The notes beneath the pieces were generated by a model. It was not told the DNA's origin, did not search any database, and saw nothing but the letters and a program-made list of their open reading frames with translations. Positions 3,033 through 57,235 of a DNA stretch of 64,000 nt are shown here, in pieces. Position numbers and translations under genes: made by a program. The first letter of the stretch is position 1, and each line of letters begins with the position of its first letter. Source of the stretch: Eledone cirrhosa. Its lineage: Eukaryota. The DNA lies in NCBI GenBank assembly GCA_964016885.1, contig OZ024746.1, forward strand, positions 89,776,001-89,840,000, written 5' to 3'.

Positions 3033-4860
3033 AATGAAGTAATTCCGTCGGAAAAGTCCAGGAAAAAAGAGTGCTCTATGTAGGTAACATAGATTAATAG
3101 TTATGTAATAAACAACATAAGGCAATTATTCCATTTACAAGTGGTTTCTTAAAAGCAAAAAAATTTGATTTCAATCCTCAGAATGAAAAAATCCTGGTCT
3201 GTTTATTGAATTTGGATTTCAAAAACAAAAGTGCAATCTATATGAAAGTGAGGCTGGAGAAAGAAAAGGAAAGGAAATATAAAATAAAACCACACATGCA
3301 AACACACACACACAAACACACGTACACACACATAAAAGCATACATACACACACATATATATATATATATATATACATACACTCATACATACACACACACA
3401 TATACACATATATATGTGTATATAAATACACATATACACATACATATACACATACATATATACGCACATAAATATCAACACATCCATACATACACATATA
3501 CAACCACACACACATATATATATATAGAAATATAAATATATATATATATATATACATATATATATACATATACATGCATACACATACACATACATAGCCA
3601 TACACACATACATATACATACATACATACATACATGCACACAATCATACCTATATACACACGTACATACATACGCATACATAAATGCGTACAGATGCATG
3701 TACAAAATTAGAAAAATATACACAGCTCTACATATTCACACACGCAAATAAATAAAAGAAAAAATATATATAAAAAATAAACTCTATTATATAGCTGACA
3801 GCGATACAGCGACGAGTAGATGAATAGACACGCGTGGTAAGCAATACACACAAATGCACGTACACATACGTACGAAAAGGTAAATACATACACACACGCT
3901 CACACATAAATATACATATACAAATACATAAACACATACATACACATACACAAATACATACACAAACACACACACGCACACACATACATAGATACACACA
4001 CATATACATATATATATAAATACACACACACATACACACATATATATATATATATATACACATACACACACACATACATACATAGCTATACAATTATACA
4101 AATACGAATACGTACATATCACAAACATGCACAACCAAATACAAACACACACACACACACATACATATATATATATATACACATATATATATGTGTGTGT
4201 GTAAAACTCCTGGCTGGCTGGTTGTTGATTACCGGTGTTATTTTAGCCTCATAAACAACATATTTGGTGTTACATTTACCGTGCAATTGGCATTCATCCG
4301 GCTTCCTGCAACTGCATCCTGGATTTGTTCTCGTATGATTTGAACTAGTGATCTTTGACTTCATAGATGGGCAACAAGAGTAACTGATCTTAACTACGTT
4401 CCTATTAAATATCTTATAATATCTATGGTTAGGAGGAAAATGTTTGTCTAAGGGTTCAAGGAATTTCCTTCCTACATTAGTTTTGACAGTTAGAGAGAAG
4501 GGGGGGGTGGGGGTGAACCAAATAATTTTCCTTTTTCCTGTTATTGTGGTTAGTTTTAGGGAGGGGAGTAGGTAAATAAAAAACATTTTCTGTAAAACCG
4601 CTGTTCTTAAGGGCTTTATTAAACATGTCTATAGGCGAAGATAAGGTATAAATCCTACGGCTAATGTTAGGAATAAGATTGTTAAAAACTTTAGGGGGAT
4701 GGCAAGACTCTTTGTGTATCTACCTAAGATTTTCATTAGGTTTATGATAGGGTTTAAAGAGGCGGTAAGTAGATCAAGATTAATATCAAGAAAGTTAGCA
4801 TTGGTAAGGTTCGTATCTATAGTGATTTTAAGGTTAAGATTAGCAAAAGTATTGATTATC
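3033..4860 (-). mobile_element. Naiad-like Penelope element, 3' part (linker/GIY-YIG start, microsatellite-rich UTR, HHR tail)
   Basis: ORF 4119-4586 RKIIWFTPTPPFS..VKTNVGRKFL..DKHFP..IFNRNVVKISYSC..CSCRKPDECQLHGKC..VVYEA; HHR at 3132-3185; ends at (TA)n. Confidence 0.8.
3132..3185 (-). ncRNA. type-I hammerhead ribozyme
   Basis: Minus strand catt-CTGAGGA-ttgaaa...ttttaa-GAAA-ccacttg-TA-aatg. Confidence 0.7.
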
Positions 4861-4899
4861 TGGATCGGATTTTAGCATGATAATTCAGGGCCAATACCA

Positions 4900-6250
4900 T
4901 CTTTTCAAATGCGAAGCTCAAACAGTACACGCAAAAAAATGGACGTGCGCTCAGCCTTTTCAGATTTGCATTCCCTAATGGGTTTGTGTCTGCAAAATAC
5001 ATGCTCATGTGTGAGGACACTAGATTATCTACCCTGTTTCCTGCACATTTCCGATCTATTATTTATCTCTGGTTTAATTCGGCTGATGAAAACCGCTTGC
5101 ATACCCATTAAATTTCCGATATTCCTTTCAGTCACCTCGATTGTAACCCCGGTTTCATAGTTGCAGCATCTGTGAAAATGGTTTTCACGGAAGAAGCTTT
5201 CGTCGTCACGTGTTCTTTGATCCGCATGTGCAGCACCCGGATGGTACTTCCGATCTATGAGGCAAATCAATTTCTGGCGCTCTACAAACACTGCCATTTT
5301 TTTAAAGCTTCAGATGCCCTCATTCACACTCCTCCGTTATTGATGGGACAATTAGGAAGTCTACATATATCACTGTGTGTGGGTTGGTGTCTGTGGAGGC
5401 GTCTCCTCAATAAGTGTCCAAATTGTGCCAGTCGTATATTCAGTCCCTCCCTACATAATTCTTGTCTGATCGCAGCTGTCGTTTTCTCATCGAAATGTGG
5501 CAGATTCAGGTATCGTATGTTATCTGTAGGGGCCCGTGTCCTCCTCGTTCTTTTAGCGTTGCTTCATTCGTATTTCGGTGATTAGTGAGAATAGTAGAGT
5601 ATCTGCTTTCGGTGAGAATTCTTTGGAATCCCCCCGTTCCGGTATGTATGTCGTTACCGTTGGTGCCTCTGTTGCCAATCAGGGAGATATCATTCCGTAT
5701 ATAGGTAATTTTGCAGGGAAAGACTGAGCCTTTGTGAAGAAAAATGACTCTGTGGGCATCCTTCCTGTAAAATTTGGTAAATATGGATCCCTCTTCTCAA
5801 ACGTTTAGTGTAAGGTCAACTAGAGAGAGGGAACCAATTGTGTATGGATGTTCAACCTAACATTCTATGTATGTCAATGTTTTCAAAGGTGAGGTACATC
5901 TTGTCGGCTACGTAATGTGAAGTAGTGGGCATAAGGATGTCATCCATTTATCTGGAGAAGAGGTAAAAAGAGCGACAGGTGCTGAGTTCTGTGCCCGTAA
6001 ACTGGTCAATGAATGCGATGGCCAGCATGACTGAAAATCTCGATCCTCTCGGAAGTCTTGGGATTTGTTTTATTACGGTACCCTCGAGATGCTAGAAGCA
6101 CATGGCGACAGAGAGGATTTCACGATGTCAACAGCAATGAGACCAAATCACCTGATGTCGGTATAGTCGATGATGCTGTCCGTAATTATGCTTATGGCGG
6201 GGGCGGCGGGGAGAGAGCTGCAGAGGGAAAATAACGACTATATTAATTGT
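4900..6250 (-). mobile_element. degenerate Penelope element, RT + GIY-YIG pseudogene
   Basis: Minus-strand translation gives GLPRGSRFSVMLAIAFIDQF, LFSR*MDDILM (RT YxDD), AS*IGSTIRVLHMRIKEH (YIG motif) and FISRIKPEINNRSE; stops and frameshifts. Confidence 0.8.
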
Positions 6251-7502
6251 CTGTTGACTATTTCAGGTGAGATGTTTACGTGTCAGGGAATATGTGAAGG
6301 AGATTTATCAAACATCTGGTGAGAAGCCAGAACAATTTATTGAAAAGACCGCTTAAGCCAGAAACGATGTGTCTAATTTTTATTTTGGTCCAGTTTTATG
6401 GATTTTGATAAGATGGTAGAAGGTGTGGAAATCACTGATTTTTGTGACGAAAATGGATTATATTCTACTAGCGAGGTTTCAGTGGTTTTTGACATCCTTG
6501 GCATGGGGAAAGGAAGCAGATGTATACATGTCTTGTTTTGCATCGGGCAACCAAAAAACTTTAATGAATATTCATGCCCATCTGTAAGAAATATAGAATA
6601 ACAGAGCATTACCTGCAACAAATTGATGTTGAGAATGAAATTTCATAGCTTCAAATTCTGAAACGTTGACAAATTTGTAATTGGAATTTCCCAGGAACAC
6701 TTACAATTATTCTAACAAATATTAAAATGAAATTCTGAAAGCTCATGTATATAATTATGGACTTTAAATTACAAATAACAATTATATAAACAAATAATAT
6801 GAAATTCGGTCCGAGTGATTTTGTTTTGTTTCTAAATCTTTCCATTCCATTAACATTTAGTTATATTCTAGAAACTTCGAAAACGAAACATTTTGAGGAC
6901 AGATAAGAGACTCTCAAATTAAGGAAGCATACCATATATTATATTTTTTAGTGATATATGATATTTGATGTTGAATATGCTTCGCGCTCCCTCTCTCTCT
7001 CACGCTCTCACTCTATCTATCTCTCTCTCTATCTATCTATCTCTGTATATGTATGTATGTATATATATATATATATATATATATATATATATATATATAT
7101 ATATATATACATACACATATATATACACACGCACACATATATATATATATATATATATATATATATATATATATATATATATATATATACATATATGTAC
7201 ATATATATTTATATATACATATATATATATATATAACAATATACATATATATATATATACATATATATATATATATATATATATATTTATTTATATAGAT
7301 ATATATAGATATATATATATACATATAATATATACATATATATATACATATATATATATATATATATATATATATATATATATATATATATATATATATA
7401 TATATATATATATATATATATATATATATATATATATATATATGTATGTATATATTTATATATATATATATGGATGGATGTATCTATACTATCTATGTGT
7501 CT

Positions 7503-56082: not shown

Positions 56083-56235
56083 AACAAAATGGGTGTGGTA
56101 AGATATTGGGTGGACCATAAGGCACCAGATTACTCAATGATTAGGGCAGTAGAGTAGGTCATAGGAAGAGAATCAGGATCCCGACGGTTGACCTTCGTTT
56201 CGACAGCTGGAGCCGAACTTCGGATCTGACTTTTT
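56083..56235 (-). mobile_element. PLE 3' stub with HHR 3' half
   Basis: Minus strand GAAA-cg..cg-TC-ggga..ctctactgccctaatcattgagtaatctggtgccttatggtcc, a diverged relative of the 30030-30124 tail. Confidence 0.7.
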
Positions 56236-57046
56236 TCATATATATATATATATATATATATATATATATATATATATATATATATATATATATATATATA
56301 TATATATATTTATACTTATTCAATTGTTAGTAACATTTGACAGATTGGGTTTGATATTTATTGGCCATGTCGCATGAAGAAACATTAACGAAGAAGTAAA
56401 CATGCTTAGATAAATAGAACAAATACCTATAAGATGTCTACAAGACAGGATCTATAATTTTATAGTATGAATTAAAAAGAAAAATAATAACAGCAAACAA
56501 GATTAATTTTAGCCTTCAAATCAAACTCGACTTGTCTTCAACTGTTTTTAGCTAAAAATGTATCATTCTCTCAAATAAAGAAAATACAAAATACAAGAAG
56601 TATTAAAAAGTTAGATATGATTTAAATTATACCAAGTTATAACTAAAAATGGTGTCAGTTTATATGTTGTATTGAATATCAAAGTACCAAAAAAGAGGCG
56701 AATTCCATTAAGGTATATAAATACATTGCAACTTCGATCACAATGTAGACCATATAATGTATCAATTTCGTTGTCTAATATGTCTTTATATACCCCTTAC
56801 GTATTTCCAATACTATTATGTCAATTGTTTGTATATTAAGTGTACAAGTATGTTGAATATTCTCAGTGGTACTAGTAGTATATATATATATATATATATA
56901 TATATATATATATATATATATATATATATATATATATATATATATATATATATATATATATATATATATATATATATATATATATATATATATATATATA
57001 TATATGTATGTATATATATGTATATATGAATATATATATATATATA

Positions 57047-57235
57047 GCGAAGGAAAAGTGGTAAGGAACCAAGTGGACCATAACGCACCAAAGTACTCAA
57101 TACTTAGGGTAGTAGAGTGGGTAATAGGAGTAAGTAAGACCCCGACGGCTGAGCTCAAGCCGTTTCGACGGCTAATACAGAATTAGCCGTCGAAACGGCT
57201 TGAGCTCAGCCGTCGGGGTCTTACTTACTCCTATA
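57047..57235. repeat. PLE tail plus fold-back centred in the HHR helix II loop
   Basis: 57126-57176 mirrors 57182-57234 (GAAA-cggc/ttgagctca/gccg-TC-gggg in each arm); between (TA)n tracts. Confidence 0.85.

Follow-up and report, generated by a model that had tools for sequence, protein, structure and literature searches.

A predicted twin hairpin in the leader of Hydra-clade Penelope-like elements coincides with both ends of their inserted copies

We analysed a 64,000-nt stretch of Eledone cirrhosa DNA (assembly GCA_964016885.1, contig OZ024746.1, positions 89,776,001 to 89,840,000; hereafter the window) in which Penelope-like elements (PLEs) of dissimilar families carry a common octamer, GAGYRCTC, near one end. 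This box forms the 3' side of a bulged hairpin, predicted to occur twice in the leader of full-length elements, and inserted copies mostly end just before one hairpin or the other. We consider it probable that the doubled hairpin marks both end positions and anchors the reverse transcriptase (RT), so that copying would start 5' of the stem. The evidence consists of the two copies, covariation, the end positions, the pairing of short with long arms in inverted insertions, and the presence of the motif in four phyla. Elements of this class are known; a twin hairpin linked to both of their ends appears not to have been described.

Results

A shared octamer precedes (TA)n junctions in dissimilar families

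The setting is AT-rich animal DNA, dense in microsatellites, in a 3.0-Gb assembly. All 12 octamers listed by an earlier sequence-only reading of the window are present on their strands and belong to seven families (family labels such as F1 and F2 were coined here). The consensus it proposed, GAGYRCTC, is exact at six of these sites and deviates at the other six. The distance from box to element end, put at 40-60 nt, is 36-53 nt at ten sites and differs at the other two; these are the GAGCCCTC sites, where box and end are separated by a (TAT)n or (CA)n run and the family distance is 34 nt. Two further sites had been considered weaker variants: that at 14022 is a good member, whereas that at 63885, which has no partner strand, is not one. 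We also found a member at 32349 (-) that had escaped the list.

Enrichment was assessed in an unbiased set of 78 stretches of 10 kb, evenly spaced across the assembly and containing 876 (TA)n junctions; further loci were taken through targeted searches. In the unbiased set the exact octamer occurs 19 times at 30-49 nt before a junction and 0-2 times per 10-nt bin elsewhere. De-duplication gave 608 junction clusters, 92 of them multi-copy and 516 singletons. Among the multi-copy clusters the exact octamer was found in 4, versus 1, 1 and 0 in three control windows (p 0.005); counts rose to 11 versus 2, 6 and 3 with one mismatch allowed (p 0.001), and a hairpin descriptor gave 5 versus 0, 1 and 0 (p 2e-4). 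The exact octamer stays enriched over all 608 clusters (p 0.001); the one-mismatch form is not enriched there (p 0.49; p 0.12 in a separate run), which counts against the observation. Genome-wide, a box pattern matched 308,838 times against 6,863 for a reversed control, both inflated by repeat register, and a loose two-box pattern (7,070 matches versus 5,379 in the control, both populated by tandem repeats) served only for finding loci.

Beyond the box, tails are dissimilar between families (15 tails, 105 pairs, median z 0.1, one pair with z > 3). The octamer is real: its enrichment before (TA)n persists among de-duplicated multi-copy clusters, and the tails that carry it do not align end to end. 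The earlier proposal of a conserved cis-element, common to dissimilar PLE families and linked with the priming position, is supported.

The box is one strand of a predicted, covarying hairpin

In nearly every instance the box is preceded by RCTC. The predicted hairpin reads RCTC, a variable inner hairpin, a bulge of 1-2 nt that directly abuts GAG, then GAGY, followed by NCTY. The idea that the octamer might be displayed as a looped-out palindrome did not hold: its GAGY half covaries with the upstream RCTC.

We chose the partner strand by CTC and the inner stem only, which leaves the outer pair free to vary. Among 23 hand-picked instances with an inner stem of at least 2 bp, this pair is A:T in 13, G:C in 9 and T:G in 1 (Fisher 2e-6, ignoring kinship, with no tree correction), and copy 1 alone gives 13/4 (Fisher 4e-4). 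Four instances with an inner stem below 2 bp (A:T, G:C, G:C and T:T) and two without CTC were dropped. The bulge begins with T in 21 of the 23 instances and with C in two. The octamer centre is self-complementary by Watson-Crick pairing in nine, by wobble in nine, and mismatched in five (CC, CA, CT). An Rfam scan of the window, and so of copy 1, gave 106 matches at E up to 1, none of which reached the gathering score.

Two observations concern hairpin families beyond this set. A further box sits some 50 nt 5' of the hairpin in F184 (L268, minus strand, 1500-1600), and this family may have another copy or a register that is one off. Some hairpin families have no CTGANGA core within 230 nt upstream (L034:2363, L199:5830, L199:1627, L174:992 and L269) and are possibly non-autonomous riders.

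The hairpin occurs twice before the start codon

Full-length elements are ordered as hammerhead, motif copy 1, segment A5, a hairpin, motif copy 2, segment A3 and ATG. The ATG lies 12-61 nt beyond the second box, so the motif is non-coding as well as double. Both copies precede the ATG in F1, F2, F35, F86, F6 and F172, and carrier families share 29-53% identity over the N-terminal 110 aa. A pattern that fits copy 2, plus copy 1 of F14 (TANNTN-GCTC..GAGCRCTY), matched 4,155 times, versus 11 in the control.

The segments behind the two boxes are complementary within a family: A5 and A3 of the same family pair at -11.1 kcal/mol, against -6.0 kcal/mol across families (seven families, p 8e-4). A duplex between box 1 and box 2 was tried and rejected. 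It predicts GAGGGCTC as the second box of F6, where GAGCACTC is found, and it also fails in F1; the pairing probability of the two boxes is at most 0.21 in 13 of 13 folds.

Inserted copies end just before one hairpin or the other

We mapped the ends of inserted copies with 223 alignments, from the unbiased set and the window, to 13 leaders; the count covers the 90 that abut a microsatellite and leaves aside the remaining 133. A separate set of short-end counts, for F269, F159, F184 and F40, is not used, since repeats in the reference or a misplaced stem distorted it. Copy 1 accounts for 34 of the 90 ends, at -14 to +1 nt relative to its RCTC, and copy 2 for 55, at -10 to 0 nt, with 40 of the 55 at exactly -3; one end lies away from both copies. 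Copy 2 is led by a conserved TATNTN (T at -6 in 9/9, A at -5 in 7/9, T at -4 in 8/9), whose TAT continues directly into the target repeat. Contigs from three sequencing runs end at the same two places and were not counted as independent.

Because most ends sit just before copy 1 or copy 2, the end found 40-60 nt beyond the box is not set by it, contrary to what the sequence-only reading had supposed. That end lies 3 nt before copy 2, which is absent from truncated copies; it is the shorter end that belongs to the visible copy, falling a few nucleotides 5' of that copy's stem. The stretch from one hairpin to the other, about 80-105 nt in the present elements, is the tail.

Head-to-head insertions combine the two ends. 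One short and one long arm were found in 24 of 25 in the unbiased set (p 8e-7 against 0.5) and in 37 of 38 at other loci; with one long+long insertion that the filter had missed (L007), these give a tally of 61/64. Four further families add 5 of 5. That the tail is often on one end only of inverted insertions has been published (PMC8557442). Within F1 either arm can be the longer (6 versus 7), and the arms are within 10 nt of each other in 22 of 35 pairs. Most F1 inverted arms (57091-57230; L002-L030) break off where the 3' strand of hammerhead stem II lies, 52-62 nt 5' of the short end, and that helix may set the F1 arm junction.

The carriers are Hydra-clade PLEs

By their motifs and a published alignment, the carrier elements are assigned to the Hydra clade. 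An intact single open reading frame (ORF) in L279 codes for RT and then a C-terminal GIY-YIG-type endonuclease (EN); a Pfam scan returned no family for this ORF or for the window fragment. Over 117 aligned proteins, R42 W43 and D122 K123 T124 (DKT) are conserved in at least 90%, and no conserved Cys that would speak for a CCHH motif lies between Y598 and Y611. The linker CxCx5C corresponds to C577 C579 C585, and the EN carries C675 C678 (CxxC) and C703 H705 (CxH); the N-terminal motif reads RWR in F1 and RWK in F86. Elements insert at (TA)n and have a hammerhead in the pseudo-long terminal repeat (pLTR), with cores located by pattern and a core variant in F1; Rfam gave no hammerhead match in the window. 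Neptune identity was dropped on published alignments, as the CX2-5CxxC linker and CCHH of Neptune/Nematis are absent.

The Hydra clade as described by Craig et al. 2021 (PMC8557442), which lists an Octopus member, agrees in DKT, CxCx5C, CxxC plus CxH in the EN and the lack of CCHH, and also in the (TA)n target, the pLTR hammerhead and the one-end tail of inverted insertions. The available part of that paper describes no leader motif and gives a tail of 30-40 bp, shorter than here, and a size "generally" under 3 kb; the F1 unit is 3531 nt long. At least four intact F1 units form a tandem array with a period of 3531 nt (G000:C1:437200516-437211390; L279), and intact 784-codon F1 frames are numerous genome-wide, F1 being a recently active family.

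The motif is also found in other taxa. Six published Hydra consensi were judged by eye over roughly the terminal 450 letters on either side. The motif stands out clearly in the coral consensus Hydra-2_Amil, in Hydra-1_Ajap from sea cucumber, where both copies are present, and in Hydra-2_Ajap; Hydra-1_Crog (copepod) carries it with a double change, GCCC paired with GGGC; Hydra-1_Obim has a variant and Hydra-1_Amil a weak form. A metagenome scan gave two loci: contig L284, which shares 45% identity with F6, carries the motif 40 nt upstream of the ATG, and L285 lacks the 5' end and showed no motif by eye in its 3' part. The predicted motif is conserved across four phyla.

Features of the window

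3069..3093 (-): motif copy 1, F14; box GAGCACTC at 3069-3076; partner mutated here, intact in other copies
8378..8630: inverted insertion, F35, long arm (-) and short arm (+), flanked by (TA)n runs
8433..8461 (-): motif copy 1, F35; ACTC, 4-bp inner stem, TA bulge, GAGT-GCTT
10410..11072 (+): broken ORF of a Hydra-clade PLE, with linker CxCx5C and a GIY-YIG-like end
12554-12592: hammerhead core in the 3' pLTR of the 10410..11072 element
13992..14029 (+): motif copy 1, F14022; GCTC, 6-bp inner stem, TT bulge, GAGC-TACT
14956..14978 (+): motif copy 1, F12; ACTC..TT-GAGT-ACCT
23702..23751 (+): motif copy 1, F6; GTTC here, GCTC in other copies; TC bulge; GAGC-CCTC
23960..23983 (-): motif copy 1, F52; box GAGTGCTC; partner decayed here, intact in L160
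28155..30127: inverted insertion, F1, 1972 nt, short arm (-) and long arm (+)
30053..30080 (+): motif copy 1, F1; ACTC..TT-GAGT-ACTC
31543..31550 (+): box, F52; upstream stem lost at an inversion junction
32349..32372 (-): motif copy 1, F2
35826..36154: model insertion, F86: (TA)n, long arm (-), palindromic junction, short arm (+), (TA)n
35990-36026 (-) and 36054-36090 (+): hammerhead cores of the F86 insertion
35878..35921 (-): motif copy 1, F86; ACTC, 6-bp inner stem, TC bulge, GAGT-GCTC
43597..43624 (+): motif copy 1, F1
48280..48329 (+): motif copy 1, F6
56128..56155 (-): decayed motif copy 1, F1 relative; GAGT-AATC
57091..57118 (-): motif copy 1, F1

The F1 hammerhead core (29900-30040; L205-L232) reads CTTGANAAG or CCTGANAAG rather than CTGANGA and has a long helix III, whose loop contains the palindrome GAGCTC, a better candidate for kissing than the box. 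Broken RT fragments of another retroelement type and a second Hydra-like linker/EN fragment lie at 61813-62656 (-) and 4119-4628 (-). Another hammerhead family, at 63717-63990, has a tail without a GAGY box (clusters 9, 10 and 22). Outside the window, a very young long interspersed nuclear element with a 1141-codon frame and a restriction-like endonuclease end, presumably R4/Dong-like, occurs in L145, L148 and about 90 other places, with copies 98-99% identical.

Discussion

How the two hairpins could set both ends

In the reading that we prefer, the hairpin would act as RNA and both ends would be RT start sites, for which the in vitro precedent comes only from Poseidon. Each hairpin would anchor one RT protomer on the RNA, and copying would start just 5' of the stem, where a nicked (TA)n primer could pair with 2-4 bases of the UAU immediately before it. 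Two protomers, one per hairpin, would prime opposite target strands and thereby produce a head-to-head insertion with a tail on one arm only. The U bulge before G-C, A-U and G-C pairs is a putative arginine-binding site of the kind known from the HIV-1 trans-activation response element (TAR). The full scheme, a programmed twin priming in which a protein dimer sits on two TAR-like RNA hairpins and each protomer primes a (TA)n strand through UAU in the manner of telomerase, is a tentative proposal that we hold with clearly less confidence than the marking of the ends.

Telomerase RNA offers a parallel in its template-flanking element, where a helix of the RNA, bound by protein, keeps a set distance from the short stretch that aligns the primer; the present anchor differs in lying 3' of the start and in being duplicated. 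In L1 twin priming, two primings on one RNA lead to an inversion. There one start is at poly(A) and one is random, whereas both starts would be programmed here.

In Poseidon of Anolis carolinensis (PAc; Frangieh et al. 2024, PMC11167929) the tail is, in vitro, the stretch between two internal RT starts. The reaction needs RNA 3' of these sites and both cuts and extends the two target strands; a dimer is predicted. The Poseidon starts lie inside the ORF at an AC-rich stem-loop, unlike the present leader upstream of the ATG, and a repeated motif is not described in the available part of that paper. As for the bulge, the arginine sandwich of TAR and 7SK (PMC6189040) likewise begins with U and continues with G-C, A-U and G-C pairs, the setting of the U23.A27-U38 triple. 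The topology here is permuted relative to TAR, with the loop closing the helix 5' of the bulge, and the Crog copy has no U. Full-text searches on PLEs and on the bulge motif turned up no description of the twin-hairpin motif, although relevant material may exist in subscription papers, Repbase notes or supplements.

Several results weigh against this reading. Poseidon starts without primer-template homology (PMC11167929), so its precedent does not transfer to UAU pairing, and the Crog bulge speaks against a U-dependent site. The copy-1 offsets are looser than those of copy 2 and are blurred through TA microhomology. When leaders are folded as single sequences, the mean pair probability of the helix reaches 0.5 or more in only 8 of 13 for each copy, and the antisense strand folds equally well. 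The long-range duplex of F86 is weaker than several cross-family duplexes. No partner CTC was located in F45; F40 has a T:T outer pair and a weak stem; and L058 (copy 2) and a single F172 copy show A.C. The scheme does not account for the conserved NCTY 3' of the stem, and the two-ended family at 63717-63990 has no such box.

Alternative explanations

The strongest rival, which we nevertheless think unlikely, is that the hairpins act as DNA, as single-stranded cDNA or an extruded donor, and that the GIY-YIG EN recognises them and cuts at the upstream TA, so that the ends are cleavage sites of a transposition intermediate rather than RT starts. PMC8557442 ascribes the tail to EN-mediated resolution, recognition by the Drosophila virilis EN depended on the tail (work cited in PMC11167929), and the TAT before copy 2 resembles the (TA)n target. 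Neither folding nor counts of G.U pairs prefer a strand. Yet the Poseidon tail ends coincide in vitro with RT starts on RNA (PMC11167929), and copy 2 lies outside the inserted part, so it would be absent from a cDNA beginning 5' of it. The inner hairpin also varies freely with pairing kept, a poor fit to recognition of plain duplex DNA.

Somewhat less probable still, the hairpins could set the RT starts without a dimer on one RNA, through one enzyme acting sequentially, for the first and then the second strand, or two ribonucleoproteins in fixed order. The coupling of short with long arms demonstrates ordered use of the sites, not stoichiometry, and is compatible with this. That either F1 arm can be the longer and that most pairs are nearly equal suits two equivalent, simultaneous primings better, and the long-range helix would keep both copies in one fold.

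We give very little credence to the sequence-only reading's alternative that the octamer is a self-complementary kissing site dimerising RNAs for minimal hammerheads, which have been proposed to work as dimers in PLEs (PMC4209133). The GAG..CTC symmetry, the conserved NCTY half without a known partner and the 18 of 23 centres that are pairable when G.U is allowed fit it. Against this, GAGY is paired in cis with a covarying strand, 5 of 23 centres are mismatched, neither F6 nor F1 shows the predicted pairing of box 1 with box 2, and such a site would leave the end positions unexplained; the claim is unsupported. Finally, although all carriers with a known ORF are of one clade and PLE tails can be coding in other clades (PMC3846280, PMC11167929), a mere leftover of recent common ancestry or coding constraint is refuted because the motif lies upstream of the ATG, the tails are not alignable across families, the changes are compensatory, and the motif is retained in coral, sea cucumber and copepod.

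Implications

PLEs are the retroelements closest to telomerase, and the choice of start site and the origin of inversions with a one-sided tail are the questions that these hairpins address. As an RNA element common to the clade, the hairpin would carry predictions at the level of single bases: a start 3 nt before copy 2, and a start that moves with the hairpin. Being a compact signal, it could also help to detect non-autonomous riders and to direct a PLE RT to a chosen RNA. If programmed twin priming is true, this one design would account both for pLTRs arranged head to head and for a tail on a single side in PLEs; other PLE clades may follow the same principle with different sequences.

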